A stretch of DNA of 64,000 nucleotides from Deinococcales bacterium. Lineage in GTDB: Bacteria > Deinococcota > Deinococci > Deinococcales > JAAFIG01. Each line of letters opens with the position of its first letter. Positions within the stretch are counted from its first letter, which is position 1. Both the position numbers and the translations under genes were made by a program. The notes beneath the pieces were generated by a model, which saw nothing but the letters and a program-made list of their open reading frames with translations, did not search any database and was not told the origin of the DNA. This document shows, piece by piece, positions 1-64,000 of the stretch. Where the stretch lies: positions 9,283 to 73,282 of the forward strand of contig JANNVX010000064.1 in assembly GCA_031414595.1 (NCBI GenBank), written 5' to 3'.

Positions 1-297
1 AGCACAACAACGACTCCAAGCACAACGACAACTCCAAGCACAACGACAACTCCAAGCACAACAACAACAACAACAACCCCAACAACCCCAAGCACGACAA
101 CAACCCCAACAACTCCAAGTACGACAACAACTCCAAGTACGACAACAACTCCAAGTACGACAACAACTCCAAGTACGACAACAACTCCAAGCACAACAAC
201 GACTCCAACTACAACAACAACCCCAAGCACAACAACGACTCCAACTACAACAACAACCCCAAGCACAACAACGACTCCAAGTACGGCGACAGCCCCT
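1..297 (+). repeat. Coding tandem repeat encoding PSTTTT units
   Basis: 18-nt unit ccaagtacgacaacaact occurs 4 times perfectly at 115-186, with degenerate copies on both sides. Confidence 0.9.
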
Positions 298-576
298 GAC
301 CCAACCATCACAGCGCCAATCATTCCAGTTGCACCTACCGCCGAGTTAATAGAATTGCGTCGCCTTGTCCAAGAAGATTTACGTCTCGAGTATGCTGGTT
401 TTTCAATTGGCACAGTTAAAAAAGCCTTCTTTCAATCCAGTCGTGGTCTGCTATCAATTGCAGAAGGCGATCCCCTCATTCGTGATTCCAGTGTTATTCT
501 GAAATCGGTAAGCCCCACAGAAGTGGTTTTGGCACTCGGCAATGAACTCTTAACTCTACCTTTGGTGAAACGGTGA
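1..576 (+). CDS. 5'-truncated type IV pilus assembly protein (PilW/PilP-like) with long Thr/Pro/Ser stalk
   Basis: Frame 1 is open from base 1 (STTTTPSTTTTP...) and continues into the tracked 355..576 ORF. It ends in a ~65 aa beta-rich domain (LEYAGFSIG...SVSPTEVVLALG) and lies upstream of pilQ. Confidence 0.75.
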   Translation, partial: STTTTPSTTTTPSTTTTPSTTTTTTTPTTPSTTTTPTTPSTTTTPSTTTTPSTTTTPSTTTTPSTTTTPTTTTTPSTTTTPTTTTTPSTTTTPSTATAPDPTITAPIIPVAPTAELIELRRLVQEDLRLEYAGFSIGTVKKAFFQSSRGLLSIAEGDPLIRDSSVILKSVSPTEVVLALGNELLTLPLVKR

Positions 577-584
577 GGTCGCAC

Positions 585-1508
585 ATGAAGATTCAAATTT
601 CGTTACTCGCAATGGTACTCTGGATAGGGGCAAGCGTCGGTTTAGCGCAACAACCCTATGATGATCGCTTGCCCAAAGAAGCCCGTTTTGATCAACGCGT
701 GACGGTCAATTTGCCATCTGGTATTGACCTCAACACCTATATCAAAGAACTTGCTGGCACAATTGGATTACAACCAATTCTCGAGAACGTCCCGCAATTA
801 GCCGTGAACTACCCTCTGAACGATGTGAAATTCCGTGATGCTTGGAATGTCACAATGGCACTTGGTAATTTTGATTATGAATTACTGGGTAATGTGATGG
901 TTGTTTCTGATAAAGCATCTATTGAACGCTTGCGGGTTCTTAATGCCAGTCCAGCCTCACTTCCAACCAGCACTCCAAACGCCTTGTTGGCTCTAAATTT
1001 TACAGCCGGTAAAACCCTTGAAGGGGCCGTGCGTGATGTCGTGGCATTGGCAAAATTACAAGTCATTCCGGTCAACATCCCAAACCGCAACATTGATTAC
1101 AACCTAAGAGGCTTGCCCCTGCGTTTGGCTTGGAACGTATTGCTTGCATTGGGCGCACTTGATTATTACATCGTTTCAAACGACATCGTGACCGTTGGTG
1201 CAAGTGCCGCCATTGACCTACTGCGTCCTAAACCAGCCGTGGTTGTGCCTGTGGTGATTGCACCTCCTGTAGCCGTTCGCCCAGAACTCGAGGTCTTTGT
1301 AGATACGCAAAAAGTTGAATTTGTTGGCTTTGTGCTTTCTTCAGAAGTACGCAAGGCGGTGTTTCGCACTGCCCAAGGAATCAAAGTGGTGGCGGTTGGC
1401 GGTTCGCTGGTCAAAGACAGCAAAGTAGTCTTACGTTCATTCTCAGAAACAGAAGCGGTTCTCGCATTGGGCGATCAAACCATTACACTCAAGTTACAAA
1501 AACCATAA
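585..1508 (+). CDS. Secreted pilus-associated protein: two secretin-N0-like domains plus C-terminal PilP/PilW-like domain
   Basis: Signal peptide; ATG at 585 follows GAGGT. The N-terminus (DDRLPKEARFDQRVTV...DYELLGNVMVV) aligns by eye to the PilQ N-terminus, and the C-terminus aligns to the C-terminus of the upstream gene. Confidence 0.75.
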   Translation: MKIQISLLAMVLWIGASVGLAQQPYDDRLPKEARFDQRVTVNLPSGIDLNTYIKELAGTIGLQPILENVPQLAVNYPLNDVKFRDAWNVTMALGNFDYELLGNVMVVSDKASIERLRVLNASPASLPTSTPNALLALNFTAGKTLEGAVRDVVALAKLQVIPVNIPNRNIDYNLRGLPLRLAWNVLLALGALDYYIVSNDIVTVGASAAIDLLRPKPAVVVPVVIAPPVAVRPELEVFVDTQKVEFVGFVLSSEVRKAVFRTAQGIKVVAVGGSLVKDSKVVLRSFSETEAVLALGDQTITLKLQKP

Positions 1509-1524
1509 TTCTCGAGGTATAGTG

Positions 1525-3075: not shown

Positions 3076-3088
3076 ACCAAGCACCAAC

Positions 3089-3116
3089 AAAATGCCCCCA
3101 AGTTTGGGGGCATTTT
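3089..3116. terminator. Bidirectional intrinsic terminator
   Basis: aaaatgccccca-agtt-tgggggcatttt lies between convergent pilQ and the DUF790 gene. Confidence 0.9.
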
Positions 3117-4357
3117 TATATTGGGTGAACCAAGGAATTCGGCAAGCGTTCGGCGAGTTTCAGCACATTTTTAGGCTCGAGAACTCCTTTGAACCAAATA
3201 ATTTGATTGTTGTAGCGCTCGAGTTTTAGGGCGGTTTCTTTGCCTAAATTCAGGCGTTGTGAAACTGCCAAAATCAAATCTGGGCGCTCGGAGGCTTGAA
3301 TTTTTCGCAGTTTGCGTTCTAAATACTCGGCTCGCCAGTAGCCGATAATCTCAAGTAAAAGGCTGCGCCCGTCTGGGTGAACCAGCCTAAAATCTGGAAT
3401 CATGACTGTGCCGCCTAGGTCTACAATGTCTACTTCACGCTCGAGTTGCCAATCGGTTTGGGTAAGTGCAAAACGACTGGCAAAAGATTGCTCGAGCAAA
3501 CTGTCAAACATTTTTCCAGCGCTGTAATGTGATTTTAAGGTTGTGCTGTCGTTCAAAACGTATTCGGCTTCGTCCCTAGAACCATCGTAATGGCGCACTT
3601 GGATTTTACTTTGTAATGTCCATTTGGAAACATGCAGCAGGGCGGGTAAAAACTTGGCAAAAGCGATGCCATACCGTGTGCTGGGTTGAAATAAACTCGA
3701 AGGACCATCGAGCATAATGGTGTAGCCTGCATCTGGATCGCCGTTAATACGGTGCATTAAACCAAAGAGTTTTAGGTATTTGAACAACAGCTTGTACTGC
3801 CCGGGGTTGTTGCGGTGGGCTGTCACAAGCAATTCTGAGGCACGGTACAAGATACCTTGGGCTTGTGCAAGGTTATAGCGCGTCAGCAGCCATTCTGGAG
3901 TCGGGGCAGTAAAGGCAATAATTTGGGCTTCGCGCAAGTCGGCGTACAGGCTTTGTTCTAGGTTGACTCGAGTAATGGGTCTGGGTAAACCTGCGCTGAG
4001 TGTTGTTGCTACCATCTCGAGGGTTTGAGCGGCAGTGGCTAGGCTTGGGCGGTGCTTGGCTGCCATGGCAAAGACTTCGGCTCGAGCTACTGCGGGTTCA
4101 ATACTGCTTTGGGCGCTAAATTCACAACTTTCGGAGTACAACAAATGGGCTAACCCTCGGCGAACTCGGTAATCGGTGCTGTCGGCTGTATCCGCCTCGA
4201 GTGCTTCGTCTAGATCACGTCTTGAACGCCCATGATGCACTTCAAATAACAAAATAATGCCTCGAGCCAATTCGAGGTTATCGGCACTTAGCTCGAGGGC
4301 GTGGGGGGTAATAATGCCACCACGAAAAACATTGATTAAAAATTCGGTAGGTAGCAC
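3116..4357 (-). CDS. DUF790 family (Bax1-like) PD-(D/E)XK endonuclease
   Basis: YNLAQAQGILY, LDGPSSLF...RYG..FAKFLPALL and IPDF...LEIIGYW motifs. GTG start has CATAAT 6 nt upstream. Confidence 0.85.
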   Translation of the reverse strand: MLPTEFLINVFRGGIITPHALELSADNLELARGIILLFEVHHGRSRRDLDEALEADTADSTDYRVRRGLAHLLYSESCEFSAQSSIEPAVARAEVFAMAAKHRPSLATAAQTLEMVATTLSAGLPRPITRVNLEQSLYADLREAQIIAFTAPTPEWLLTRYNLAQAQGILYRASELLVTAHRNNPGQYKLLFKYLKLFGLMHRINGDPDAGYTIMLDGPSSLFQPSTRYGIAFAKFLPALLHVSKWTLQSKIQVRHYDGSRDEAEYVLNDSTTLKSHYSAGKMFDSLLEQSFASRFALTQTDWQLEREVDIVDLGGTVMIPDFRLVHPDGRSLLLEIIGYWRAEYLERKLRKIQASERPDLILAVSQRLNLGKETALKLERYNNQIIWFKGVLEPKNVLKLAERLPNSLVHPI

Positions 4358-4426
4358 AGGGCTATTATGCCAGAGAAACGAGGTTTTGATTTTAAGGGCG
4401 TTCTGTGTCTCGAGTCCGACAGCGCT

Positions 4427-4969
4427 CTATGTTTCGAGTCCAATGGCAAAAATTTCCGAGTCTCGAGTCAAAAGCTGTACCCTTGGCAATGGAAGTAACG
4501 CAGGACCAGAGACACTTTTGCCTGCCATTTCAGGGTCAAAAGCACTAAAATGACAAGCACACCCAAGCACTGGATGCTCAAATTCTGGACGGTACTTGTA
4601 TGCCATGGCAGTAATTTCTGGGTTTTTGATGTACTCAACGTTACAACGCAAATGCGTGCAATTTCTGGATAGGGCGATAAAGTGCTTGCCTGAAATACTA
4701 ATCCCACCAATTTGTGGTTTTTGTACCCGTACCAAAATAGCTGGAGTTGAACCGATTTTGAACTGCACCGCATCCCAGATTTTAGGTAAATCGGAGACTC
4801 GAGCCACTCGGACTTTAGGGGCTGCCACAAATTTGGGGGTGCTGCTTGGGGCAGGTTTACCGACTAAAATATTCCATGACCGAATGCCCAGCCAAGTAAA
4901 AAAACTCGCCACACCTGCAACAGGTGCGACCCACCAATACTCGAGGATTTTACGACGGGAAAGGGGCAT
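4427..4969 (-). CDS. Tat-exported Rieske 2Fe-2S protein
   Basis: SRRKIL twin-arginine motif; CTHLRC and CACHFS iron-sulfur boxes. ATG placed at 4969. Confidence 0.85.
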   Translation of the reverse strand: MPLSRRKILEYWWVAPVAGVASFFTWLGIRSWNILVGKPAPSSTPKFVAAPKVRVARVSDLPKIWDAVQFKIGSTPAILVRVQKPQIGGISISGKHFIALSRNCTHLRCNVEYIKNPEITAMAYKYRPEFEHPVLGCACHFSAFDPEMAGKSVSGPALLPLPRVQLLTRDSEIFAIGLET

Positions 4970-5014: not shown

Positions 5015-5017
5015 TAT

Positions 5018-6160
5018 TCATGGTTTTAGACCAGTCACGAATTTGATGATATTTTCTAGGTCTTTTCCTTGGATGTTTTTGAAGGCTGGCATTTCTTGGT
5101 TGCTCGAGCCGTTGGCTAGTTGCTTTTTGAGGAAGTCTGGGCTTCTGGCTTTTGAGGAAGTTTTTAAGTTTGGTCCAACCAGTCCTTGGGCTTCTGCGCC
5201 GTGGCAGCCAGCGCAGCTTTGGGCAAACAGTTTTGCACCGGGGTCAGCTTCACGTAAACGTGTTTTAGCGGCGGCAATTAAGTCTGGAATTCGTGCGCCA
5301 AAGGCTTTATCCTTATTGACTTTTAGAAATTGTTCCCATGCAGCAATTGCCCCTTTAGGGTCGTTTTTAGCGCTAAAACGAATGTTGCCAATCGTTAGCC
5401 ACGCTTCGGCATTACCGAGTTTTGCGGCGGTCTCGAGTAAGGTCAGGGCTTGGTCGTAATCGCCATTAAAAAAAAGAATCTGTCCGTAACGTGATAAAGC
5501 ATGGATATTTTCTTGGCTCGGTTTGGTTGGTTGGTTCTTTTTGGCTGTGTCGGTGAATTGTCTTAAAGCTGCTCCGTAGCCTTTGGCTGCATCTTCAAAA
5601 CGGTCTAACTCCCATGCCACATCGCCGTATTTCATCAGGGTCTCGAGTGAAAATTCTAAGCGCCTAGCTTCGGGTAGGGTTTCGTTTTTCTTAGAGGTCT
5701 GGTTCAGTTCTGCCGCCAGTTTAAGGAGTTCTTTTTGATTGGCGTAAAGCTCACGTTCGACTGGTCTAAGGGCTAAATTCTCGAGGGCTGGAACTGCGAA
5801 GGCACTTAAACCCCCGAGTAGTACAGCCGTTAAGGTAAATAATAAGATGCCACCACGTAAACTGGCTCGAGATGGATTTTTAACTGGTGTTTCTGCTGTG
5901 GCTTCGATGACTTGCAAAATTTTAGCGGCTCGAGTTTCGTCACGCAAGCGAAAACGTTCATAATCTTGGGTGTTGATTTCGCTCTGCTCTTGTTGTCGTT
6001 CAAGTTCTCGAATCTGGGCGTACACAGCGTTTAATTCTTCCTCGAGTTCATCTTTTTTGGTTTTTACACGAATCTGTGCCGAATTACCGCGCAAAGGCAG
6101 TAGTGCAAAAACAGCCAGTAAAACAGCCACCAAGCCGAGCAAAACAAACCACGGAATCAT
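5018..6160 (-). CDS. ccmI: CcmI/CycH-like TPR protein fused to a C-terminal c-type cytochrome
   Basis: N-terminal TM helix and coiled coil, second TM helix, TPR helices, C-terminal CAGCH heme motif and EMPAF distal Met. Confidence 0.75.
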   Translation of the reverse strand: MIPWFVLLGLVAVLLAVFALLPLRGNSAQIRVKTKKDELEEELNAVYAQIRELERQQEQSEINTQDYERFRLRDETRAAKILQVIEATAETPVKNPSRASLRGGILLFTLTAVLLGGLSAFAVPALENLALRPVERELYANQKELLKLAAELNQTSKKNETLPEARRLEFSLETLMKYGDVAWELDRFEDAAKGYGAALRQFTDTAKKNQPTKPSQENIHALSRYGQILFFNGDYDQALTLLETAAKLGNAEAWLTIGNIRFSAKNDPKGAIAAWEQFLKVNKDKAFGARIPDLIAAAKTRLREADPGAKLFAQSCAGCHGAEAQGLVGPNLKTSSKARSPDFLKKQLANGSSNQEMPAFKNIQGKDLENIIKFVTGLKP

Positions 6161-6645
6161 AGGTGGGTACTTGCCCCGCTTCCTGCCACATGCCCCGCAC
6201 TATCATGGCTGCGGTCACGTTGCGCCTCGAGTTGCCTACGCACTTGCTCGAGTGCGGCGGGGTTGACTTCTTCGGGGTTTTGATGGCTTGAGCGCTTTAA
6301 GTAATTCCACAACACAGCCCCACCAATCAACAAGACCAAAACTGGCAAAATCCATACCAACATATTCACCCCTTGAAACGGTGGTTTAAGCAGCACCGTA
6401 CTGCCATACTTCCCTGAAAAATAGGCTTTGATTTCGCTTTCAGATTTTCCTGCTTTGACCTGAGATTTGACTTCGGCAAGCATACTGCGGGCAAAATCTG
6501 ATGGACTTTCGGTGATGGCAGAGCCACCACAGACAGGGCAACGCAATTCATTGCCGATTAAACGTGCTTTATTCTCGAGTTCTAAATCGGTTTGTGCCAA
6601 GGAAATCGAGAGGAAAGAGAAAAGTAGAAAAAAAAGAAATTTCAT
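6157..6645 (-). CDS. ccmH: Cytochrome c biogenesis protein CcmH
   Basis: LRCPVC, YG..VLLKPP and W.LP motifs. Confidence 0.92.
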   Translation of the reverse strand: MKFLFFLLFSFLSISLAQTDLELENKARLIGNELRCPVCGGSAITESPSDFARSMLAEVKSQVKAGKSESEIKAYFSGKYGSTVLLKPPFQGVNMLVWILPVLVLLIGGAVLWNYLKRSSHQNPEEVNPAALEQVRRQLEAQRDRSHDSAGHVAGSGASTHL

Positions 6646-7184
6646 TCGACCCCCAGCAGTTTTAAGCCAGCCTCGAGTTCAGCGCGTTCGATTGGCTTAG
6701 GGTAATGTTTTTTTACCACACCATTGGAGTCAATAAAAAAGGTTTCTGGAACACCAAAAAGCGCATATTTGACACTGGTACGCCCAGCATCGCTCGAGTC
6801 ATCCATCATAATAGGAAAACCAAGGTCAAACTGATTGGCAAATTCACGGGCTTTGTCTTCTTTGTCATTATAAGCAATACCCAAGAAAATTACGCCTTTT
6901 TTGCTGTATTCAATTGCTGCCCTCGAGAACATTGGAGCTTCGTCTTTACACGGCACACACCAAGAAGCAAAGAAATTTAAGACCACGGGTTTACCCTTAA
7001 ACTGCTCGAGTTGAATGCGCCCACCGTTAATCAAGGTCAGGTCAAAACTTGGTGCGGGTTTTCCCTCGAGCGCGGCAGTGCTTTTGTTACCCGGCTGCGT
7101 CGGTGTGAGCAAACCACCAAGCAGCACTGCCAAAACAGCGACAATCACTGCGCCAATAATAATGTTCCGAACGGCTGTGTTCAC
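6642..7184 (-). CDS. ccmG: Thiol-disulfide oxidoreductase CcmG/TlpA
   Basis: FFASWCVPC and GVPETFFID; N-terminal TM helix; located in the ccm cluster. Confidence 0.88.
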   Translation of the reverse strand: MNTAVRNIIIGAVIVAVLAVLLGGLLTPTQPGNKSTAALEGKPAPSFDLTLINGGRIQLEQFKGKPVVLNFFASWCVPCKDEAPMFSRAAIEYSKKGVIFLGIAYNDKEDKAREFANQFDLGFPIMMDDSSDAGRTSVKYALFGVPETFFIDSNGVVKKHYPKPIERAELEAGLKLLGVE

Positions 7185-7196
7185 ATTTTCTCCTAC

Positions 7197-13277: not shown

Positions 13278-14120
13278 TCAGACCCCACAACCCGAGACAA
13301 GACGTTGCACAAATTTCTTGCCATCCCATTGCACTGCAAAAGTAGCCGAGTCTTCGTAAATGGCTTCAAAGTACAACACCTCGAGTTTGCCATCGCCGTT
13401 TAAGTCTAGGACATTGACCAAATCCCAAACATCGGGGTTGTTTTGCATTCCAGCCTCAATATCGGCATCAGTCGTGGTTTTTAAGTGGATTTCCTGACCC
13501 AAAGAAATAGTTTGGACTTTGCCAGCCACGATTTTACGCACCAACAGCAGACTGTAATCGCCTTTTTCGCCTCGAGCGCTTGGGAATAAACCACTGCGGT
13601 AGCCTCGAGTCGCCGCAATAATAATTTCATCTTGTTTGTCGTTGTCAAGGTCAGTTTTAATCAGGCTGGTAATCTTCACTTCGGGGTTCTTAAGTCCTAA
13701 TTTCTCGAGGTATTGGGAAACCACGGCTCGGTATGTGCCATTATCGTTAGACAATACGGTCACGGCTCGAGGACGAAGATTCCAAGTGGCGTTGGTGGCA
13801 ATCACCCAGTTCTTTGCGGCGGGAACAGGATTTAATTTTACGCCGTAAGTTTCTTCGCACGGCACACCGTAGGATTCTTTGGCTGTGCCAACACTGGCGC
13901 TAGTGATTTTACCGCCCATTGTCCAAAGCGAATTGTATTTCATGCCAGCCGGAGCAACGGCTTTTTTACCGTCTAACCAAGTTGAACCCGACACGCCGCC
14001 TAAGACTTCAAAAACATTTTCTGAAGTTATCGGCGGATAACCAACTAAAAAAGTGGCGCTATTTGGTGCAGCCGCCACACCCAAGGACAAAACAGCCAGT
14101 AATGGTAAGAGTTTTTTCAT
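13278..14120 (-). CDS. Secreted hypothetical protein with Ca-binding DxDxDG-like loops
   Basis: Signal peptide MKKLLPLLAVLSLGVAAA; DLDNDKQDE and DLNGDGKLE loops. TATGCT lies 6 nt before ATG 14120. Confidence 0.75.
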   Translation of the reverse strand: MKKLLPLLAVLSLGVAAAPNSATFLVGYPPITSENVFEVLGGVSGSTWLDGKKAVAPAGMKYNSLWTMGGKITSASVGTAKESYGVPCEETYGVKLNPVPAAKNWVIATNATWNLRPRAVTVLSNDNGTYRAVVSQYLEKLGLKNPEVKITSLIKTDLDNDKQDEIIIAATRGYRSGLFPSARGEKGDYSLLLVRKIVAGKVQTISLGQEIHLKTTTDADIEAGMQNNPDVWDLVNVLDLNGDGKLEVLYFEAIYEDSATFAVQWDGKKFVQRLVSGCGV

Positions 14121-14141
14121 TACTTCAGCATACACGATTTT

Positions 14142-15743
14142 TTAATTCTGCTCGAGAATTATTTTGTCCTGTACCAAAATTCGGCGTGTGGCAATCGTCT
14201 CAAGTAAGCGCCTGTCATGCGAAGCCAGTAACAATGTACCCGTATACTCGAGTAATAATTTCTCGAGAGCAGCAATTGCATCAGTATCCAGATTATTGGT
14301 GGGTTCATCCAAAATCAGCAATGAAGCTCGAGTGACCGATAACCGCGCTAAGGTTAAACGGGTGCGTTGCCCACCAGATAAAGTAGCAATGACTCGGGAT
14401 GGTTCTTTGGGCAACCTTAAACTCGCCAGCAACGCATAGATTTCCTTGGTTTGCAAATGCGGATTAGCAGACAGCAGCGCCTCTTCAAGGGTGATGAATT
14501 CGTTGATTTCCTCAGTGTTCTGGGCTGCCCAGTAGACAGTCACATTCTGCCCGAAAGTCACATTGCCCGTAAACCCGAGTTGCCCTAGAATGGCTTTGAT
14601 TAAGCTGCTCTTACCACCACCATTTGCTCCGACCAACGCAACTTTTTCACCACGTCCAATAAATAAATTAACCTTCTCGAGAATTATTTTTTCATCACGC
14701 TGCACCGTCACACCCTCGAGCTTAAGAACTTCAAACGCACCGACTGGCACAGCATCCAACTGAATTTTGGTCAAAAAACCATCTTCAAAAGGCTTCTCGA
14801 GTTCGCCCATGTGTTCAATGCGTTTCTCGAGTGCCAGCGCACGTTTGCCTTGCTTATGCGACGCTCGGTTCATCAAATGAAAGGCAGTGGTGGCATCACG
14901 GCTTCCCACTCGGTGCTTATTTTCGCTTCTCGAGGCTTGGGCAATGGCGGCTTGGCGCTCAAGGGCTAATTGTTTGATTTTACGTTCATGATTTTCAAAC
15001 GCCAGCAATTGGTTTTCTCGAATGGCTTTTTTAAGCGCCATTGCTTGGCTAAAATTCCCTTCGTACAAGCTGACTTTTTGCCGCTCGAGTTCATAACAAC
15101 GCGTCACTGTCGCATCTAAAAAAGCCCTGTCGTGCGAAACAATCATAAAACCCGCGTCAGAAGCTAAAATCCAATGCTCAAGCCAAGTTAAACTGTCTAA
15201 ATCCAAGTGATTGGTTGGTTCATCCAACAAGTAAAAATCGGCTGGCTGAATCAGTAACCGAGCCAGTAATGCGCGGCGTTCCTGCCCACCAGAAAGCGCG
15301 ATACTCGAGCCTGAGCCTTCTAAACCCAGTCCAGCCAAGATTTCCTCAGCCCGAATTTCAAGGTCGTAGCCACCCGCAATTCTAAATTCTTCTTCTAGCA
15401 GTGCGTACTCGGTAAGATGCTCAGGGCTTGGATTCTCGAGGGCGACTTGGGCTGCCTCGAGTTTATGTTTCAAATCTTTAAGCGCATCGGGCAACACCAC
15501 ATCACGCAGCGCACCTGTCTCGAGGGTCGTGCGTTGTGCGAGATACGCCACTCGCCCAGTCAATGTCACTGTGCCAGTATCAGGTGGCTCAAAACCAGCC
15601 AGAATTTTGAGCAGCGTGGTTTTACCACTGCCATTACGACCCAGCAGCGCAACCCGTTCGCCCATCTGTAACTCGAGGGCGACATCATCAAAAATTAAAT
15701 TGTCTGCAAAGCGCTTTTGCGCTCCACGCATGATTAAGCTCAC
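14142..15743 (-). CDS. ABC-F family ribosome-binding ATPase, probably of the antibiotic-resistance type
   Basis: Two ABC domains (GRNGSGKTT/LSGGQERR/LLDEPTNHLD and GANGGGKSS/LSGGQRTR/ILDEPTNNLD), no TM segments, long linker. GTG at 15743 follows GGAGG. Confidence 0.9.
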   Translation of the reverse strand: MSLIMRGAQKRFADNLIFDDVALELQMGERVALLGRNGSGKTTLLKILAGFEPPDTGTVTLTGRVAYLAQRTTLETGALRDVVLPDALKDLKHKLEAAQVALENPSPEHLTEYALLEEEFRIAGGYDLEIRAEEILAGLGLEGSGSSIALSGGQERRALLARLLIQPADFYLLDEPTNHLDLDSLTWLEHWILASDAGFMIVSHDRAFLDATVTRCYELERQKVSLYEGNFSQAMALKKAIRENQLLAFENHERKIKQLALERQAAIAQASRSENKHRVGSRDATTAFHLMNRASHKQGKRALALEKRIEHMGELEKPFEDGFLTKIQLDAVPVGAFEVLKLEGVTVQRDEKIILEKVNLFIGRGEKVALVGANGGGKSSLIKAILGQLGFTGNVTFGQNVTVYWAAQNTEEINEFITLEEALLSANPHLQTKEIYALLASLRLPKEPSRVIATLSGGQRTRLTLARLSVTRASLLILDEPTNNLDTDAIAALEKLLLEYTGTLLLASHDRRLLETIATRRILVQDKIILEQN

Positions 15744-15788
15744 GTGAACCTCCAAGAAAAAAGGGTGAAGACCTCTTGCCTATGGTGA

Positions 15789-15806
15789 TTAACGCAAACG
15801 TGTCAT
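15789..15806 (-). promoter_or_regulatory. Leader uORF MTRLR upstream of the ABC-F gene
   Basis: AAAGGA-7 nt-ATG ACA CGT TTG CGT TAA, 45 nt before the ABC-F start. Confidence 0.7.
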
Positions 15807-15946
15807 GCAGTAGTCCTTTGAAATAATTAAAGCCGTTGACTCGAGCCAATTCTCGAGGGAGTGGTTTAGATTAACCCAAAATGTGCAGTAAAATCATTAC
15901 GAAAAATGGCGTATCTCTCACCCGGATTTTTGTTAGCATACGCGGC

Positions 15947-16441
15947 GTGAATCCGCTTGTTGGCATTATCATGGGCAGCCAATCCGACTTAGAAACTATG
16001 CAGCACACGGCGAATACCTTGCGTGACCTCGAGATACCTTTTGAAATGCGAATTGTTAGCGCTCATCGCACCCCAGATTTACTTTTTGAATACGCCAAAA
16101 GCGCCGAGGCTCGAGGGCTTGAAGTGATTATCGCGGGGGCAGGCGGCGCAGCACATTTACCCGGAATGGCAGCCAGTCAAACCGTACTGCCCGTACTTGG
16201 CGTACCCGTACAAAGTAAAGCCCTAAACGGCTTAGATAGCTTACTGAGCATTGTGCAAATGCCGGCTGGAATTCCAGTGGCAACGCTGGCGATTGGCAAC
16301 GCTGGTGCTGTCAATGCGGCACTTTTAGCTGCCGCCATCCTAGGCAATAAATACCCAGAAACTCGAGAGAAGCTGCGTTCTTGGCGTGAAAAACAAACAA
16401 AAACAGTTCTCGAGAACAGCCAACTCGAGGGCAATTCATGA
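15947..16441 (+). CDS. purE: N5-CAIR mutase
   Basis: [17 protein letters not shown] and [18 protein letters not shown] lies 7 nt before GTG 15947. Confidence 0.97.
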
Positions 16442-17538
16442 TTCCGCCCGGAAGCACGATTGGCATTTTGGGTGGTGGGCAACTGGCGCGAATGCTGGCG
16501 CTGGCAGCCAGACCAATGGGATATAACGTCGTGGTACTCGACCCAGACCCAGACTGCCCAGCTTCTGGTGTGGTGGACGAAGTGATTGTTGGTGCATTTG
16601 ACAGCCCGAATGCCTATGCACAACTGGCTCAGGTCTGTGATGTGGTGACTTTAGAGTTTGAGAATATCCCATCAGAACACCTCAAAGCCCTCGAGCAAAC
16701 CGTACCGTTGCGCCCAAACCGCAAAGTTCTTGAACGCAGCCGAGACCGACTGCTCGAGAAGAGCTTTATTACCAAAGCCGGTGTGCGTTGCGCTCCATTC
16801 CAAGCAATTTATGCCAGCAGCGACCTAGTAGCAGCCAGATACCCCGCAATTCTCAAAACTGCCACGTTAGGTTATGACGGCAAAGGACAAGCTAAGGTCT
16901 ACACCCAACTCGAGGCAGTCAAGGCTTTTGAGCGCTTTGGCAGTGTGCCATGTGTTTTAGAAGGTATTATAGATTTTTTTCTCGAGATTAGCGTGATTGT
17001 GGCACGCTCAAGTACCCAAACCAAATGTTTTCCAGTCTTTGAAAACCAGCATCAGAACGGAATTTTGGACATCACCCTAGTGCCGGCTCGGATTCCAGAA
17101 GAAACCGCCGAAAAAGCCAAAGAAATTGCTATTAAACTTGCCAATGCCCTCGAGTTACATGGATTGCTCTGCGTTGAAATGTTTGTCACCAACAACCAAC
17201 AAATTCTGGTCAATGAGATTGCACCAAGACCACACAACTCTGGGCATGTGACAATCGAAGCCTGTCAAACCAGTCAATTTGAACAAGCCGTGCGTGCCGT
17301 CTGCGATTTACCACTTGGCAGCACCGAATTACACTCGAGTGGCGCAATGGCGAACTTACTTGGTGAACACATCTCCCCAACTGCCAACTTTGGTGCAGCG
17401 CTCGAGACTGGGGCAAAACTGCACTTGTACCAAAAGCGCGAAGCTCGAGCAGGGCGCAAGATGGGGCATTTAACCGCGCTTGGTGAAGATGCTTTTGAAA
17501 AAGTTAAAGCGGCTCGAGCAGTGCTTAAAGAAACATAA
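16438..17538 (+). CDS. purK: N5-CAIR synthase
   Basis: [30 protein letters not shown] and GRKMGH; coupled to purE. Confidence 0.97.
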
Positions 17539-17541
17539 ACC

Positions 17542-17625
17542 ATGCTTGAAGAACGTGCTAAGCGGGGTTCTCGAGAAAAGTTCTTAACTGCCTCGCAAGC
17601 CATGCCAAATGTTGCCCAAACCCAG
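17542..17625 (+). pseudogene. C-terminal remnant of a HicB-like/RHH antitoxin
   Basis: LEERAKRGSREKFLTASQAMPNV resembles the C-terminal half of a widespread small antitoxin family; the N-terminal DNA-binding half is absent. Confidence 0.5.
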
Positions 17626-17654
17626 AAGATATGTAATTGCTGTACAATTGAGCC

Positions 17655-17897
17655 ATGAACTTAGACCTACCCAGCAAAACAGCCAAAACCCTCGAGCAAC
17701 TGAGGCGTTCGCTTGGCACGACCAGAGAGGAAGCCATTGACCGCGCCTTGAATTCTTATCTGGACGACATCAAAATGGAACGGGTTTTGACTGTCCCAAA
17801 TCCTCGGACTAAAGACATGACCGAAGATGATGTTTATGAAGTTGCCAATGCTGCCATAAAACGCGCTCGAGCCGAAAAGCGTGAGAAGAAACGGTGA
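17655..17897 (+). CDS. CopG/RHH-type antitoxin
   Basis: 80 aa with an RHH-like N-terminus (LDLP...LEQL...TREEAIDRAL); coupled to the PIN gene. TACAAT lies 6 nt before the ATG. Confidence 0.75.
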   Translation: MNLDLPSKTAKTLEQLRRSLGTTREEAIDRALNSYLDDIKMERVLTVPNPRTKDMTEDDVYEVANAAIKRARAEKREKKR

Positions 17898-18322
17898 GGG
17901 TGGTTTTAGACACCAATATCTGGGTGGCTGGGGCAGCTAGACCCGAAGGCGTAACAGGCGCAATTCTATTTGCTTGGTTCAAAGAAAGGCGTTTTACACT
18001 ACTCACTTCTAAAAGCCAACTCGAGGAATTCAAGACCGTTACCAAGTATGCCCAAGTCAAAAAGATTCTTGGTAAGAACGAAGCTGGGGCATTGGTTAAT
18101 CGAGTTAAGAAATTAGCTGAGTTTGTATCAGTCCGAGGCATTAAGAAAATTAGTCCAGACCCTGACGATGACTTTATTATTGCCATTGCCACCCAAGGCA
18201 AAGCCAATCATCTGGTCTCGAGAAACAAAATAGATTTACTCGACTTGGGTGTGATTGAGAATGTCCGAATGGTTACGCCCGAGCAGTTCCTACGATTTCT
18301 GCGGCGTGGTCGCTTGAACTGA
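17894..18322 (+). CDS. PIN-domain toxin
   Basis: MRVVLDTNIWV, DPDDDFII and LVSRNKIDLL. Confidence 0.9.
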   Translation: MRVVLDTNIWVAGAARPEGVTGAILFAWFKERRFTLLTSKSQLEEFKTVTKYAQVKKILGKNEAGALVNRVKKLAEFVSVRGIKKISPDPDDDFIIAIATQGKANHLVSRNKIDLLDLGVIENVRMVTPEQFLRFLRRGRLN

Positions 18323-20943: not shown

Positions 20944-21003
20944 AAAATTGCAGCCCTCAAATAAACCTTGGCTCGAGTTTAATCGCTCGAGCCAAGGTTT
21001 ATT
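20944..21003. terminator. Right copy of the direct repeat, completing an 18-bp perfect hairpin
   Basis: aataaaccttggctcgag-tttaatcg-ctcgagccaaggtttatt (20960-21003). Confidence 0.85.
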
Positions 21004-23226: not shown

Positions 23227-23919
23227 TTAAGCTGCATCAAAACGGTAGCCAACACCCCAGACGCTAATCACCCGTTCGCCCTCAATGCCTAATTTGCGTC
23301 TTAAGCGCACCACAGTCGTGTCCACAACTCGGTCAGAACCGTCGTATTCTGCGCCCCAAATTCGCTCGAGCAGATAATCGCGGGTAAAAGTACGTCCGGG
23401 ATGACGCGCCAGCATCAGCAGCAATTCGTATTCCCTTGGGGTTAAATCGGTTAGTTTTTCGCCGATTCGCACCGCCCGAGCATTGTTATCGAGCTCGAAC
23501 CGCCCAAAACGTAGCACCGCCACACGGCTTTCTTCTTCGATAATTTTGGCGCGGCGCAACATCGCCCGCACCCGAGCTAAGAATTCACGCAACGAAAAGG
23601 GCTTGACAATATAATCATCTGCCCCAACTTCAAAACCAAGCACCCGATCTGTTTCTTCGGCTCGAGCCGTCAGCATTAAAATCGGTACAGTTGCAGTGGT
23701 TGCTCCACTGGAACGCCGTAAGCGCCGCGCCACCTCGAGACCATCTAAGCCGGGTAACATCAAATCCAGAATCAGTAAATCAAACGCCTCTAAACCGGCT
23801 CGCTCGAGGGCTTTAGAGCCATTACTTTCCAGAACGACCAAATGACCCTCGCTCCGCAGATGTTCAGCAATGATATTTGCTAATTCTGATTCGTCTTCAA
23901 CAACCAAAATTTTCGCCAC
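23227..23919 (-). CDS. OmpR-family response regulator
   Basis: ILVVEDE, DLLILDLMLPGLDG, GADDYIVKPF and SVWGVGYRF. Confidence 0.96.
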   Translation of the reverse strand: MAKILVVEDESELANIIAEHLRSEGHLVVLESNGSKALERAGLEAFDLLILDLMLPGLDGLEVARRLRRSSGATTATVPILMLTARAEETDRVLGFEVGADDYIVKPFSLREFLARVRAMLRRAKIIEEESRVAVLRFGRFELDNNARAVRIGEKLTDLTPREYELLLMLARHPGRTFTRDYLLERIWGAEYDGSDRVVDTTVVRLRRKLGIEGERVISVWGVGYRFDAA

Positions 23920-23988
23920 GATAACAGCAGTTTACTCTAAAAGAACCTGAAAAGTACGCCAAAAGTGTGCTAAACTCTGCAACGCCAT

Positions 23989-24065
23989 GCGCCCGTAGCT
24001 CAGTCGGATAGAGCAAAGCACTCCTAACGCTTAGGTCATCCGTTCAATTCGGATCGGGCGCACCA
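23989..24065 (+). tRNA. tRNA-Arg(CCT)
   Basis: GCGCCCG/CGGGCGC acceptor stem, GCTC/GAGC D stem, anticodon loop CT-CCT-AA, T-loop TTCAATT, encoded CCA; 77 nt. Confidence 0.95.
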
Positions 24066-24172
24066 CTATTTTACTCGAATCTAAAGAATGAACGGTAGAT
24101 TTTGTAAGCTGATGCTCGAGAACTTCTTGCCATGTCATAAGCACCTCTTTAGGTTTATTGTGCGTTGAATTT

Positions 24173-24220
24173 TTCGGGGATGCCAGCAAAATACTGGCTG
24201 TCGTTAATCCAGACCTTTTG
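24173..24220 (-). pseudogene. Remnant copy of the R-M enzyme C-terminal region
   Basis: 42/48 nt identical to 26228-26275; encodes QKVWINDSQYFAGIPE versus QKVWINDTQYFAGIPE. Confidence 0.85.
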
Positions 24221-24371
24221 GGTACAAATTTTAACTGCTTAAGTTTAGTCAACCAAACCGCATAACGCAAATGGTAACGTAAAGAGTAACGCAATCCGGT
24301 TTAGTGCATATAGCGCAACAGACATATTAAACCGACTTGAGTAACGTAAAAGTAGCGCAAAAGTAACGTAA

Positions 24372-29284: not shown

Positions 29285-29432
29285 AGAGCAGTCTACCAAA
29301 AGCACTTGGGGCTTTGGCTTCTTCCTTTTATATTGCTGCGTATTCTCTGGGCTGCCGAGGCTCGAGCCGATAAAACCCAAGAACCCTTGTAGCCCACAAA
29401 TACGGTGCTGTGACGCTTCATGGGTATCTGAC

Positions 29433-50463: not shown

Positions 50464-50538
50464 TGACCAATTGCGTTTTGCCAAGATACTTTGAGGCTGT
50501 TTTGTCTCGAGTTTTTATCTCGAGACACGGCGTTTGAT

Positions 50539-61830: not shown

Positions 61831-62558
61831 AGGCTTCTCGCAGTGATGCTTGGTGTAGCACCTAAGATAGGTGGTTCTTCGCGCAGTTCTAAACTCATGT
61901 CGGCAAGCTCCAAGTGCTTAATCACCATTTGAATGTGCTGCCGTGCGGCATGTTCTGCCGCGATAGGGTCTTTACTGGCAATCGCTTCAAAAATGGCTTG
62001 GTGTTCGGCACGAACATCATCCCTCGAGCGACTTGTGCCACTTTGCGGGTCGGACATCCGACGAATCGTGTTGCGGCGGTAGACGGCTGCTAGTTCGGCG
62101 GTGATTTCGCTAAAGCGAATCAAATGCCGATTGTCTGAAACCTCATAGATATGATGATGAAATTTGAGGTCGCTGACCCATAACGCACTTAAATCCGATT
62201 CTTGGACAGGTGTTTCCCATGCTTTAAGGTAAGTTTCTAAGGTCTTTAATTCTGGTTTAGTGATTTTTGACGCGGCTAAAAAAGCTGCCACACCATCTAA
62301 GCCCATCCGACACCAGTACAGATTGACGACATCCTCGAGTTTGAGGACACTGACTTCCATCCGTCCACCAGAATCATAAATCAATCCACGTTCACGCAGC
62401 ATCACCAGTGCATTGCTGACAGGAGTGCGGCTGACATTCAATTGGGCAGCCAGTTCGACTTCGACCAAACTGTCGCCGGGGTGAAGTTCGCCGCTAATGA
62501 TACGGTCACGGATGTTCTCGTAGACCTGATCGCGCAATGCCTTTCCTCTCAAAATCAT
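61827..62558 (-). CDS. GntR/FCD family transcriptional regulator
   Basis: [22 protein letters not shown] and an FCD domain ([15 protein letters not shown]). Confidence 0.93.
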
Positions 62559-62590
62559 TGGGGTGTCCTTTCAAAACCTTGGGATGCGGG

Positions 62591-62617
62591 ATGCTGCATG
62601 CAGCATTCATGTAGAAT
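62591..62617. promoter_or_regulatory. Putative GntR operator and -10 box in the divergent intergenic region
   Basis: Perfect 16-bp palindrome ATGCTGCATGCAGCAT (62591-62606); TAGAAT at 62612. Confidence 0.6.
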
Positions 62618-62714
62618 GTGGTACAGATTAGGTGACTGGAATCAGAAAGTCAAGCCGCCCTCTTTTAACCATCCGATTGTCGCCCTCACTCAAAACCTCA
62701 GAAAGGATAAAATT

Positions 62715-63941
62715 ATGCCTGAAGCCCCCGCTTGGAAATTCGAGAAAATCATTAAGCCGATGTTTGACACACCAAAATCAGCCGTTCTGCTGCGTGGCAG
62801 GGTGGTTAGTGGCACAGACTCCCCAACTTTAGAAGATGGAATTGTAGAACTCGAGAATGGCAGTATCAAAGCTGTTGGACACGCCACAGAATTTGGCTCG
62901 AGGAGCGAAGAATCGGTGCAGGTACTTGGCACAATCTTGCCCGGCTTAATCAACTCCCACGCCCACCTTGCATGGGATGGGATTCATGACTTGGCGCATC
63001 AAAGTATTTACGATTCCAAGCCAATCAATGCCTATAAAAGCGCTGGCAATATGCTGCTCAGTTTGCAGGCTGGCATCACCACGGTGCGTGACCTTGGAAT
63101 GCACGACAGCAACTTATTTGCCAAACAAGCCGTCGAGCAAGGCATTTTCCCGGGTCCACGAATACTGGCGTGTGGGGCAGCGATTGTCCAAACTGGCGGA
63201 CACACCTACTGGGCGTGTAAAGAAGCCAGTGGCGCAGACGAAATGCGTCGAGCTGTCCGTGAACAAGTCCGTGCTGGGGCAGACCTCATTAAAATCATGG
63301 CAAGCCACGACCTCAACGAATTCACCGATGCCGAACTCGAGGCAGTGGTGGACGAAGCCCACCGTAACGGCTTACCGATTACTGCCCATGCCACGTTTAA
63401 CAGCGTGATTTACCGTGTCGCCCAAGCTGGAGTGGATTGTATCGAACATGGCGGCGACATGACTGATGAAACCATTGCGCTAATTTTAGAAAAAAACATT
63501 CCGATTGTTACGACCTTTGCTCCGTTAGTGATGCAGTCCCAAGCCGAAGTCGCAAGGGCATACAACATCCCCGAATGGAAAATTCTCGAGCGTCAAAAAG
63601 CCGTCCAAAGTGGAACGCGCTTTGCAGGACTGGTCAAAGCTGCCGAAGCTGGTATCACCATTGCTTTTGGCACAGATGCCGGAAGCCCCGTTGTGCCGCA
63701 CACCGTGGTTGCCCCAGAACTCGAGTTTATGATTAAACTCGGTGTTAAGAAAAATGCCTTGGATGCGATTCACTGCGCCACCAGTGTGGCTGCTAAAGTC
63801 AACCGCTTGGAGGGTAAAATCGGTACGCTCGAGACTGGCAAAATCGCTGATGTAATTGTCACCGAAGGGCAACCAGACCAAAACATCAGCGACATCTCGA
63901 GAGTCAAAATGGTTTTTGTTGGCGGGATTCGGCGCGTTTAA
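62715..63941 (+). CDS. Metal-dependent amidohydrolase (prolidase-like group)
   Basis: PGLINSHAH, TGGH, TAHA, CIEHG and GTDAG. ATG 62715 follows AAGGA. Confidence 0.9.
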   Translation: MPEAPAWKFEKIIKPMFDTPKSAVLLRGRVVSGTDSPTLEDGIVELENGSIKAVGHATEFGSRSEESVQVLGTILPGLINSHAHLAWDGIHDLAHQSIYDSKPINAYKSAGNMLLSLQAGITTVRDLGMHDSNLFAKQAVEQGIFPGPRILACGAAIVQTGGHTYWACKEASGADEMRRAVREQVRAGADLIKIMASHDLNEFTDAELEAVVDEAHRNGLPITAHATFNSVIYRVAQAGVDCIEHGGDMTDETIALILEKNIPIVTTFAPLVMQSQAEVARAYNIPEWKILERQKAVQSGTRFAGLVKAAEAGITIAFGTDAGSPVVPHTVVAPELEFMIKLGVKKNALDAIHCATSVAAKVNRLEGKIGTLETGKIADVIVTEGQPDQNISDISRVKMVFVGGIRRV

Positions 63942-63960
63942 CCGTAAAACACAATCCATT

Positions 63961-63986
63961 GTAGGGACAGACCCCCGTGTCTGTCC
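63961..63986 (+). repeat. GTAG-type REP-like hairpin
   Basis: GTAG-GGACAGAC-ccccgt-GTCTGTCC. Confidence 0.65.
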
Positions 63987-64000
63987 TGCCAAACAACGAA

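Follow-up and report, generated by a model that had tools for sequence, protein, structure and literature searches.

The window, by which we mean the whole 64,000-nucleotide stretch of DNA that was analyzed, carries 383 copies of the hexamer CTCGAG (positions 1 to 64000; ~6 per kb), and every 2-kb bin of it holds at least 5. Among the most densely loaded genes is one for an ABC-F ATPase (14142 to 15755, minus strand); 14 copies lie between 14141 and 15540, and the orthologs of this gene within the family are equally dense. A second dense stretch, with 12 copies between 3121 and 4500, includes a gene for a Bax1-like endonuclease (3116 to 4357, minus strand). Both of these local counts had been given in the initial annotation and were exact. 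The longest site-free stretch (1581 to 2601, a gap of 1,027 bp) lies within a gene for a PilQ-type secretin, and the largest gap between sites in the window is still only ~1 kb. The presence of the secretin does not discriminate between the hypotheses considered below.

A gene on the minus strand (26054 to 29380) encodes a Type IIG-like methyltransferase (MTase)/nuclease of 1,108 amino acids and carries 18 copies of CTCGAG. Its MTase segment is 94% conserved in G003 only and 36 to 57% elsewhere. Type IIG-like enzymes usually recognize asymmetric sites; for this reason, and because its conservation is restricted to G003, the protein is not favored as the enzyme acting at CTCGAG. The hexamer had also been noted in hairpin stems, which is true but minor. 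Only six hairpins in the window have the hexamer in each arm, which amounts to ~12 of the 383 sites; the best example has an 18-bp stem (20960 to 21003), and another, which is intergenic, has a 9-bp stem and a 7-nt loop (50503 to 50527).

Abundance of CTCGAG

CTCGAG is over-represented, as had been claimed. The 383 copies in the window compare with 8.30 ± 2.82 expected from 100 dinucleotide-preserving shuffles (largest value, 15), a 46-fold excess. With genes called by a simple longest-ORF scheme, without a trained gene finder, 216 copies fall in the Leu-Glu frame, 67 in the frame xCT-CGA-G, and 60 in the frame xxC-TCG-AG, while 40 are intergenic; the motif is thus spread over all frames and intergenic DNA, as the initial annotation had it, at densities of 6.75/kb in intergenic and 5.91/kb in coding sequence. 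The whole genome (4,488,778 bp, GC 47.2%) holds 23,235 copies, ~1 per 190 bases, or 5,176 per Mb (5.2/kb), which is 23.9 times the zero-order expectation. CTCGAG ranks first among the hexamers of the genome, threefold ahead, and all 120 contigs are evenly loaded with it. The genome-wide densities are 5.38/kb in intergenic and 5.14/kb in coding sequence, and the coding copies divide by frame into 12,056, 3,978, and 4,276.

The 20,310 coding copies compare with 1,985 ± 49 when synonymous codons were shuffled within genes, which keeps both amino acids and codons, and with 923 ± 24 when codon order was shuffled. The first of these nulls had been set beforehand as the refuting check, and the excess persists under it. 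The reversed control hexamer, GAGCTC, has 6 copies. Dozens of other palindromes have been purged from the genome, GGCGCC being down to 3 copies, and transversion variants of CTCGAG are genome-wide 4 to 5 times rarer than the zero-order expectation. Over 10 positions on each side of CTCGAG, base composition is near background, with no conserved flank; with the flanks at background beyond the core, a longer motif or a dispersed REP/MITE-like repeat is ruled out. An assembly or cloning artifact is likewise ruled out: positions 14000 to 18000 of the window show 0 differences in independent Logan assemblies of four freshwater-sediment runs (depth 14 to 46), and the same excess recurs in the independently determined genomes of relatives.

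Codon context, conservation, and spacing

Codon choice is governed by CTCGAG, which has also raised the count of Leu-Glu pairs about twofold. No other dipeptide is as over-represented as Leu-Glu (observed/expected, 2.23), and 60% of these pairs are spelled CTCGAG versus 1.6% expected. In the matching contexts of the other two frames, CGA makes up 82% of Arg codons and TCG makes up 81% of Ser codons. The rpoB gene has a constant number of Leu-Glu pairs (6 to 11), of which rich genomes write 6 to 8 as CTCGAG and poor ones 0 to 2.

Sites of CTCGAG evolve 2.5 to 3 times slower than matched positions. Conservation of CTCGAG versus control hexamers was 90% versus 71% in G005, 76% versus 30% in G003, and 69% versus 23% in G006. 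The mismatch frequency at third codon positions was 0.14 to 0.15 inside CTCGAG versus 0.40 elsewhere, so the comparison of synonymous sites that the initial annotation had proposed gave about 3 times slower change within the motif. Intergenic copies were protected as well in this between-genome comparison. A relative without a given site mostly has a single-transition variant of it (CTTGAG, TTCGAG, CTCAAG, or CTCGAA). The genome has four gaps of more than 2.5 kb between sites, each of them a low-GC island; recently acquired low-GC islands are without CTCGAG.

A periodic spacing of the sites had been suggested as a further check; within 400 bp, nothing but the 3-bp codon period was seen. Spacing is near random (coefficient of variation, 0.99) and, below 500 bp, departs only slightly from Poisson toward evenness. 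The ratio of variance to mean for CTCGAG is 0.84 at 250 bp and 1.01 at 1 kb, with values of 1.04 to 1.45 for 25 control k-mers, and gaps of 400 to 1,600 bp are under-represented (0.8 times).

The host and the distribution of CTCGAG in the Deinococcota

Judged from its RpoB, which aligns over its full length with Thermus RNA polymerase beta (1,695 bits versus ~1,220 for the next group), the uncultured host belongs to the Deinococcota and not to the cyanobacteria, in agreement with its description as non-cyanobacterial. The best matches of one window protein are on Deinococcus plasmids. A highly iterated palindrome (HIP), in the sense of Robinson 1995 and Elhai 2015, is a short GC-rich palindrome that is ~15-fold or more over-represented and numbers hundreds to thousands per Mb, and CTCGAG in this genome fits this description. 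It occupies all frames and noncoding DNA, its excess is not explained by codon or amino acid usage, and its sites are conserved between genomes, a hallmark taken from Xu et al. 2018. Because CTCGAG shows every testable hallmark of a HIP and its host is one of the Deinococcota, it is a genuine HIP outside the cyanobacteria.

Mapped over 251 genomes, the CTCGAG excess is present in at least four clades; Deinococcus and Thermus are without it. One pair of sister genomes of identical GC content differs widely (7.0/kb in G253 versus 0.3/kb in G197), and CTCGAG-rich relatives span GC contents of 43 to 66%. Among loci orthologous to the ABC-F gene, L001 to L014 (GC 43 to 63%) have 4 to 9 copies per kb, and the Deinococcus-like L015 to L020 have ~0. 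Meiothermus ruber has 405 coding copies versus a null of 109 ± 8, an intergenic density of 2.8/kb, and a fraction of Leu-Glu pairs written CTCGAG of 0.57 versus 0.14; Allomeiothermus (M.) silvanus, at 2.44/kb, equals M. ruber. The HIP had been called an independent system. That it is a HIP stands; its independence is not established, and the patchiness across the phylum is as compatible with repeated gains as with an ancient origin followed by losses. A viral scan for clusters of CTCGAG mainly recovered phages of high GC content, where both CTCGAG and GAGCTC are frequent, these hits having been chosen by the tested pattern itself.

Methyltransferases in relatives and in this genome

By SMRT sequencing, m6A at cTcgAg was 99.5% in M. 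ruber, 94.1% in M. chliarophilus, and 94.6% in Marinithermus hydrothermalis (Blow et al. 2016, PMC4752239, supplement 4). No endonuclease is listed for the CTCGAG MTases of these three species, and no CTCGAG methylation was detected by SMRT in M. silvanus (Blow et al. 2016, PMC4752239). Elhai's rule that a HIP has a palindrome-specific MTase therefore fits the first three species, and none was detected for the equally dense M. silvanus; SMRT sequencing detects m5C poorly. Only one orphan CTCGAG MTase gene, Mrub_2385, is known in M. ruber DSM 1279. Its product, M.Mru1279II, which was located in G043, is a member of the PaeR7I family and is 64 to 67% identical to Pseudomonas aeruginosa enzymes, one match being named PaeR7I. 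The CTCGAG MTase whose gene was located for Marinithermus is TaqI-like, with close homology to M.TaqI (425 bits).

A CTCGAG-specific MTase, as the initial annotation had proposed, is thus present in cultured relatives; the search for an XhoI-, PaeR7I-, or TaqI-like enzyme in this genome gave no ortholog of either known type and no family-conserved MTase. The genome has more than 25 DNA MTase genes. The best matches to the PaeR7I-like and TaqI-like CTCGAG MTases are 24 to 25% identical, and the best match to an m6A MTase of the M.Mru1279II type is a truncated remnant on C89 (24% identity). A probe with the beta-class MTase that is partnered with XhoI gave only family-level similarity (26 to 28%), and there were 0 matches to the XhoI-family endonuclease (PF04555). 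Endonucleases of this family occur in 4 of the 251 Deinococcota genomes, and none of the four is CTCGAG rich.

For two MTase screens, 245-residue segments from each of the 24 candidates were concatenated and searched against 15 genomes, and among these candidates none was common to all the CTCGAG-rich genomes. G009 and G013 share 0 of 12 stand-alone MTases with this genome, G006 keeps one m5C MTase only, and G196 keeps 0 of the 24 tested. The first candidate, C4_28798 (a gamma-class MTase with an HTH and a TaqI_C domain), was confined to G000 and G003. An overlapping gene of 246 amino acids with a PD-ExK-like motif comes after it, and C4_28798 is a member of a widespread mobile family; from these sequence features, the two genes are probably an ordinary restriction-modification pair for another site. 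An orphan m5C MTase on C22 (C22_27856) is kept in genus g1 within a housekeeping operon, and a gene of G253 that adjoins an HNH nuclease has 60% identity to it. The C22 enzyme was rejected as a family-wide CTCGAG enzyme because it is missing from G009, G013, and G196.

Comparison with known systems

The closest parallel is HIP1 of the cyanobacteria, GCGATCGC, whose function has been without a settled answer for 30 years (PMC4390886, PMC5861425, PMC13756078). Like CTCGAG, HIP1 is a short GC-rich palindrome, over-represented tens of times in all frames and between genes; it is conserved between species, reshapes codon choice, occurs phylum-wide with some lineages devoid of it, and is the target of orphan MTases (for CTCGAG, in cultured relatives). 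However, HIP1 is an octamer whereas CTCGAG is a hexamer, and CTCGAG is denser (about 5,200 to 7,000 per Mb versus 300 to 2,700). HIP1 carries m5C, made by DmtC, whereas m6A was measured at CTCGAG in relatives. The density of HIP1 sites has a periodicity of 10 to 90 kb (Xu et al. 2018). In Calothrix PCC 7103, which belongs to a lineage without HIP1, another 6-bp palindrome, GGCGCC, acts as a HIP, with a matching MTase reported (Elhai 2015), but this case concerns single cyanobacterial strains and a lower density, and GGCGCC is nearly absent from our genome.

The DNA uptake sequences of Neisseria (DUS) and of the Pasteurellaceae (USS) resemble CTCGAG in being in excess genome-wide in coding and noncoding DNA, conserved in related species, and rare in foreign islands. 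They are thought to spread by a drive linked to transformation, and their hosts are naturally competent. Unlike the 6-bp palindrome CTCGAG at 5 per kb, they are 9 to 12 bp long and nonpalindromic, occur at ~1 per kb and more evenly than random, and have a known receptor (ComP for DUS); CTCGAG does not have this profile. The PaeR7I/XhoI restriction-modification systems have an identical recognition site and include the Pseudomonas methylases to which M.Mru1279II is related. But the usual effect of a restriction system is that its site is avoided, the CTCGAG-rich genomes among the 251 lack an XhoI-family endonuclease, and this genome has neither that endonuclease nor a PaeR7I-type m6A MTase. An orphan MTase of Nocardia recognizes the same hexamer, with clusters of sites that suggest a cellular role (Blow et al. 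2016); those clusters are local, at the replication origin, in contrast to the genome-wide 24-fold excess here.

What maintains CTCGAG

CTCGAG is a DNA-level signature, present in duplex DNA regardless of coding and held by a directional force. That it might be a by-product of codon or amino acid usage, or of the purging of other palindromes, or else an artifact, has next to no probability. High-GC relatives do prefer CTC and GAG codons, which accounts for counts at the level of Thermus, and other palindromes have indeed been purged. But CTCGAG occurs at 10 times the codon-preserving null, as densely between genes as within them and in all three frames, and the trait holds whatever the GC content of the relative; the codon nulls, the GAGCTC control, and the agreement of four independent assemblies refute this reading. 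It is also very improbable that the sites arose by escape from TaqI-type restriction. Methylation to CTCG-m6A-G also gives TCG-m6A and would shield the embedded TCGA, other TCGA sites being purged or converted. On plasmid pTT27 of Thermus thermophilus HB8, 45 of 49 TCGA are inside CTCGAG and other TCGA are at 0.03 of expectation; for this genome, CTCGAG accounts for 69% of TCGA, with the remainder at 0.62 of expectation; TCGA outside CTCGAG is at 0.83 in G253 versus 1.29 in its poor sister, G197; and there is the kinship of the Marinithermus MTase with M.TaqI. However, such escape is unable to create sites, total TCGA here is 1.9 times expectation, and TCGA outside CTCGAG is undepleted in M. 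ruber (0.99), G009 and G013 (0.98), G196 (1.49), and Marinithermus (1.57). As a sole cause, escape from TCGA restriction is already insufficient.

A role in chromosome biology seems rather unlikely. Methylated or hemimethylated CTCGAG would be read by a SeqA-, MutH-, or nucleoid-type protein, and selection would keep a site every 100 to 200 bp; the roles considered were strand discrimination, replication timing, and compaction of a multicopy nucleoid. The slight evenness of the sites, relative both to Poisson and to all 25 control k-mers, together with the deficit of gaps of 400 to 1,600 bp, is consistent with such a role, as are the near-complete methylation in three relatives, the link of HIP1 to chromosome structure, and the clusters at the Nocardia origin that go with the orphan MTase. 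Yet the evenness is weak, no reader protein is known, and G197 (unlike its sister of identical GC), Deinococcus, and Thermus manage without the sites. Somewhat unlikely, in our estimation, is pure mutational drive, in which a sequence-specific bias of repair (possibly methyl directed) or of gene conversion would push near-cognate sequences toward CTCGAG with no benefit to the cell, as in Elhai's model of HIP1. This accords with nearly geometric spacing and no periodicity beyond codon phase, with equal coding and intergenic densities, and with the single-transition variants at lost sites and the rarity of transversion variants. Sites are missing from recent low-GC islands and therefore build up with residence time. 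Against drive, the methylation known in relatives is m6A, for which to our knowledge no Vsr-type deamination repair exists; the force was sufficient to double the Leu-Glu pairs in the face of protein constraint; and a search for sequence-specific repair nucleases other than Vsr found none. Conservation of HIP1 sites has been argued to favor selection over neutral replenishment (Xu et al. 2018), and the same conservation is found here. A drive by biased conversion would mimic such conservation.

The most likely mechanism, at about an even chance, is that methylated CTCGAG is a mark of self or kin that is favored in DNA exchange and repair. By analogy with the cultured relatives, the sites would be almost fully methylated by a cognate MTase, usually without a partner endonuclease, and the dense methylated palindrome would serve as the mark. 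Marked DNA would be favored during exchange and repair in naturally transformable, recombination-prone bacteria, whether because it is taken up preferentially, because it survives better on entry, or because copies of the genome recombine, and alleles that gain a site would then reach fixation more often than those losing one. Sequence alone does not distinguish selection from molecular drive as the source of this bias. [quoted passage not shown] Counting against a kin mark are the lack in this genome of a family-conserved MTase, of an ortholog of the PaeR7I-like or TaqI-like enzymes, and of an XhoI-family endonuclease; the equally dense M. silvanus without detected methylation; the lack of an excess in Thermus and Deinococcus, which are the phylum's best-known genera with natural competence; and the near-random spacing, where uptake sequences are reported to be spaced more evenly.

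Significance

In the searchable literature we found no published account of a CTCGAG excess. For three decades HIP1 has stood as a puzzle of the cyanobacteria, and as long as it was confined to one phylum, lineage-specific and general explanations were inseparable. The finding in another phylum of a second, denser iterated palindrome that differs in motif and in methylation chemistry makes the phenomenon general. It also comes with natural experiments: sisters of identical GC content with and without the trait, clades that are fully, partly, or not loaded, and species with and without detected methylation. Cultured organisms such as M. ruber DSM 1279 open the question to direct attack.

More tentatively, and with less than an even chance, the conserved element may be the hexamer itself and not any enzyme, unrelated MTase lineages having been recruited to CTCGAG in the Deinococcota. 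At least three lineages would have been recruited (TaqI-like, PaeR7I-like, and a beta-class lineage paired with XhoI and typed as m4C), and a fourth, m5C, is possible. If so, there would be a reader of CTCGAG in the phylum, for example a DNA-uptake, recombination, or repair factor, and iterated palindromes would be a general, convergently evolved way in which bacteria mark kin DNA, testable in cultured M. ruber.

CTCGAG distorts codon and dipeptide statistics and should flag foreign DNA in these genomes. It is also a ready-made signature for metagenomic binning and host assignment.

Abundance of CTCGAG

The window (C64:9283-73282) contains 383 copies of CTCGAG versus 8.30 ± 2.82 in dinucleotide-preserving shuffles, and the local counts given in the initial annotation (12 in 3121-4500 and 14 in 14141-15540) were exact on recount. 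The whole Deinococcales assembly, G000 (4.49 Mb in 120 contigs, GC 47.2%), has 23,235 copies, which is 5.18/kb and 23.9 times the zero-order expectation. CTCGAG ranked first among hexamers by threefold, 69% of TCGA tetramers lay within it, and its density was about 4 to 6/kb on all contigs. Because the flanking bases showed no preference, the unit is the bare hexamer, not a longer repeat.

Coding DNA, defined by 3,830 open reading frames called with a simple longest-ORF scheme, held 20,310 copies. When synonymous codons were shuffled gene by gene, with the protein sequence and the per-gene codon usage kept, 1,985 ± 49 remained; when codon order was shuffled, 923 ± 24 remained. Thus, the excess persists under an amino-acid- and codon-preserving null. 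As initially annotated, sites occur in all reading frames (12,056, 3,978, and 4,276) and in intergenic DNA, where the genome-wide density matches that of coding DNA (5.38 versus 5.14/kb). An assembly or cloning artifact, named at the outset as what could undo the finding, was rejected: Logan contigs from four freshwater-sediment runs had 0 differences to positions 14000-18000 of the window at a depth of 14 to 46, and relatives' independent assemblies showed the same excess.

The assembly lacks a 16S gene. Its RpoB matched the RNA polymerase β subunits in PDB 1iw7 and 1i6v, which we take to be Thermus entries, over the full length with 1,695 bits, versus about 1,220 bits for any other group. 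A solute-binding protein of the window had its best matches on Deinococcus megaplasmids. These matches place the host in Deinococcota and bear out the claim that it is not a cyanobacterium.

Effects on codons and proteins

In G000, 60% of Leu-Glu (LE) pairs were written CTCGAG, versus 1.6% from context-free codon usage. The share of CGA among Arg codons rose from 14% to 82% in the context xCT_Gxx, and that of TCG among Ser codons from 13% to 81% in the context xxC_AGx. LE was also the most over-represented dipeptide (observed/expected [O/E], 2.23), which means that protein sequences, too, have changed. In rpoB, genomes had a steady 6 to 11 LE pairs, of which 6 to 8 were written CTCGAG in rich genomes versus 0 to 2 in poor ones; because the number is constant, constrained genes undergo synonymous recoding only.

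LE pairs with a Leu codon ending in G were 8 to 14 times below expectation in G000 (CTGGAG, 65 versus ∼800; CTGGAA, 233 versus ∼3,200; TTGGAA, 442 versus ∼3,700), a deficit far exceeding that of other synonymous pairs.

Conservation and spacing of sites

We aligned 70, 247, and 195 kb of three congeners, G005, G003, and G006, to G000 (nucleotide identities of 93%, 78.5%, and 74.7%). CTCGAG was retained at 90%, 76%, and 69% of sites, versus 71%, 30%, and 23% for same-frame hexamers overall. The conservation at synonymous sites that the initial annotation had proposed to look for was present: at third codon positions in G003, the mismatch was 0.14 to 0.15 inside CTCGAG versus 0.40 elsewhere. Intergenic sites were likewise protected, and a site missing in a relative was mostly a single-transition variant there.

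Only four CTCGAG-free gaps exceeded 2.5 kb in G000 (C46:36667-41608, C30:4279-7534, C14:37565-40431, and C96:7391-10013). All are low-GC islands (0.32 to 0.39), which indicates newly acquired DNA without CTCGAG; presumably, these stretches are recent foreign DNA. Our analysis shows that CTCGAG is a DNA-level signature that is actively maintained, by selection or biased conversion, and accumulates with residence time.

Distances between sites were near geometric (CV, 0.99), with a depletion below 20 bp (0.3- to 0.5-fold) and a mild excess at 50 to 200 bp. Over distances up to 400 bp, the spacing periodicity sought was not found, besides 3 bp. Counts per bin were slightly under-dispersed at 250 to 500 bp (0.84 to 0.89); at 1 kb the value was 1.01, whereas the 25 control k-mers all had higher values (1.04 to 1.45). 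The one-base-separated pair CTCGAGNCTCGAG (start-to-start distance of 7) had 101 copies, versus 17 to 20 at distances of 8 and 9.

Distribution across Deinococcota

Exact-pattern counts in 251 Deinococcota genomes were compared with those of the reversed hexamer, GAGCTC. Genomes of the window's family (f1) had 23,235 to 28,018 CTCGAG (5.2 to 6.5/kb) versus 4 to 24 GAGCTC. Three Meiothermus-like genera (g13, g18, and g19) had 2 to 3.5/kb, and density was variable in family f2. A Thermus-like genus (g9) had ∼0.9/kb, equal to its GAGCTC control, and a Deinococcus-like genus (g7) had 26 to 1,010 copies. Two outliers in the Deinococcus family were G253 (∼7.0/kb) and G196 (3.6/kb). By codon-aware statistics, the full syndrome was found in G253, G196, G009, G013, and G198 and was absent in G197 and g7.

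G253 and G197 are sisters (support, 100/100) in a maximum-likelihood RpoB tree and have identical GC (48.8%), yet they differ in CTCGAG density (6.8 versus 0.15/kb), CTCGAG share of LE pairs (74% versus 3%), and LE O/E (2.5 versus 1.2). The CTCGAG-rich state requires at least four changes on this tree. Meiothermus ruber had 2.44/kb; in 200 kb of its genome, there were 405 coding sites versus a null of 109 ± 8, with 2.8/kb in intergenic DNA and an LE fraction of 0.57 versus 0.14.

CTCGAG was below the null on Thermus thermophilus pTT27 and a Deinococcus deserti plasmid. On pTT27 (locus L381, 1-50000), TCGA, which the resident TthHB8I system of T. thermophilus HB8 recognizes, is nearly purged, with 4 non-CTCGAG copies versus 121 expected. 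Of the 49 surviving TCGA, 45 are inside CTCGAG, which is specifically spared although Thermus has no CTCGAG excess.

Alternate highly iterated palindromes (GGCGCC, GCsGC, rCCGGy, GGGATCCC, and TCGATCGA) were described by Elhai at 500 to 2,500 per Mb. All are cyanobacterial, whereas CTCGAG is iterated in Deinococcota, at 5.18/kb in G000. The literature searched contained no report of this excess. The phylum-wide map, the contrast between the sisters, and the raw-run check are added here, as are the exhaustive negative screen for methyltransferases (MTases) and endonucleases, the convergence of three MTase lineages, and the link to published methylomes of cultured species, including the Meiothermus silvanus counterexample.

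Methyltransferases for CTCGAG

The initial annotation had suggested a CTCGAG/TCGA-specific MTase as one possibility. Such enzymes exist in cultured relatives: a SMRT survey (Blow et al. 2016, PMC4752239, supplement 4) assigns three type II m6A MTases of these relatives to cTcgAg and names no endonuclease as their partner. Modification reached 99.5% of sites for M.Mru1279II (Mrub_2385) of M. ruber, 94.1% for M.Mch9957IV, and 94.6% for M.Mhy14884I (Marky_0034) of Marinithermus hydrothermalis. The survey shows no CTCGAG methylation in M. silvanus (PMC4752239). The M. ruber gene (G043:2437484-2439145) is 64 to 67% identical to Pseudomonas PaeR7I-type methylases. The Marinithermus gene (G025:33943-35286; L384 13943-15286) encodes an enzyme closely related to M.TaqI over its full length (425 bits) and only ∼30% identical to the M. 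ruber enzyme; this homology and its SMRT-assigned site suggest that a TCGA specificity like that of M.TaqI gained one base pair at either end. A third type, a beta-class MTase, adjoins intact XhoI-family endonucleases in three genomes of family f4, and a similar enzyme was typed as CTCGAG m4C (2026 preprint, REBASE-based table). Thus, three unrelated MTase lineages converge on one hexamer in Deinococcota.

In G000 itself, searches for an XhoI-family endonuclease and for orthologs of the three types of CTCGAG MTase (PaeR7I-like, TaqI-like, and beta-class) found none; the best match to M.Mru1279II is a truncated remnant on C89. The genome has >25 DNA MTase genes, consistent with the near absence of dozens of other 6-bp palindromes expected ∼800 to 1,000 times each (GGCGCC, 3 copies; TGCGCA, 2; CGATCG, the core of cyanobacterial HIP1, 3; GACGTC, 3; GAGCTC, 6). 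Two screens of concatenated segments of 24 G000 MTases against 15 genomes revealed none common to all CTCGAG-rich genomes. G009 and G013 had 0 of 12 stand-alone MTases, G196 kept none of those screened, and G006 kept only the C22 type.

This C22 enzyme (C22:27856-29055; L058 1405-2604) is an orphan m5C MTase with an HhaI-like catalytic domain and a different recognition domain, and is the sole MTase conserved throughout the genus. It lies in a housekeeping operon, flanked by a CBS-ACT gene and a gene for an RlmL-like RNA methyltransferase; stop and start codons overlap in this arrangement, which is syntenic in G003 and G006. A 60% identical homolog in G253 adjoins an HNH nuclease. Because m5C is poorly detected by SMRT, CTCGAG may be methylated by an m5C route in G000 and M. 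silvanus.

Possible causes of the excess

By analogy with cultured relatives, CTCGAG sites would be methylated, and methylated sites would be favored during DNA exchange or repair; we give this reading an even chance. The same idea currently leads for HIP1, for which an orphan-MTase-dependent boost of natural transformation was reported (PMC13756078). Four points count against it: no cognate MTase was found in G000, M. silvanus is a counterexample, Thermus and Deinococcus lack the trait, and the spacing is nearly random. That pure repair drive yields the excess seems unlikely to us, and a role in chromosome biology somewhat more doubtful still. Escape from TaqI as the main cause is highly improbable.

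Other restriction-modification loci

A low-GC (0.37 to 0.41) three-gene island beside valS (G000:C4:28374-31529) consists of a small Cys-rich ORF, an HTH/gamma-class/TaqI_C MTase gene, and an overlapping gene whose 246-aa product has a PD-ExK-like motif but matches no Pfam entry. The island probably represents a type II restriction-modification system, yet it is rich in CTCGAG (15 + 6 sites). In G031 (L258/L259; C1:about 1,094,000-1,097,000), a PaeR7I-type MTase that shares 49% identity with that of M. ruber directly adjoins an XhoI-family endonuclease gene interrupted by TGA and TAG stop codons, which looks like a restriction system becoming an orphan MTase. Three genomes, G021, G033, and G141 (L255-L257), carry an intact XhoI-family endonuclease and a beta-class MTase yet have ∼0.7 to 1.8 CTCGAG/kb; this lack of avoidance is unusual for a resident restriction site.
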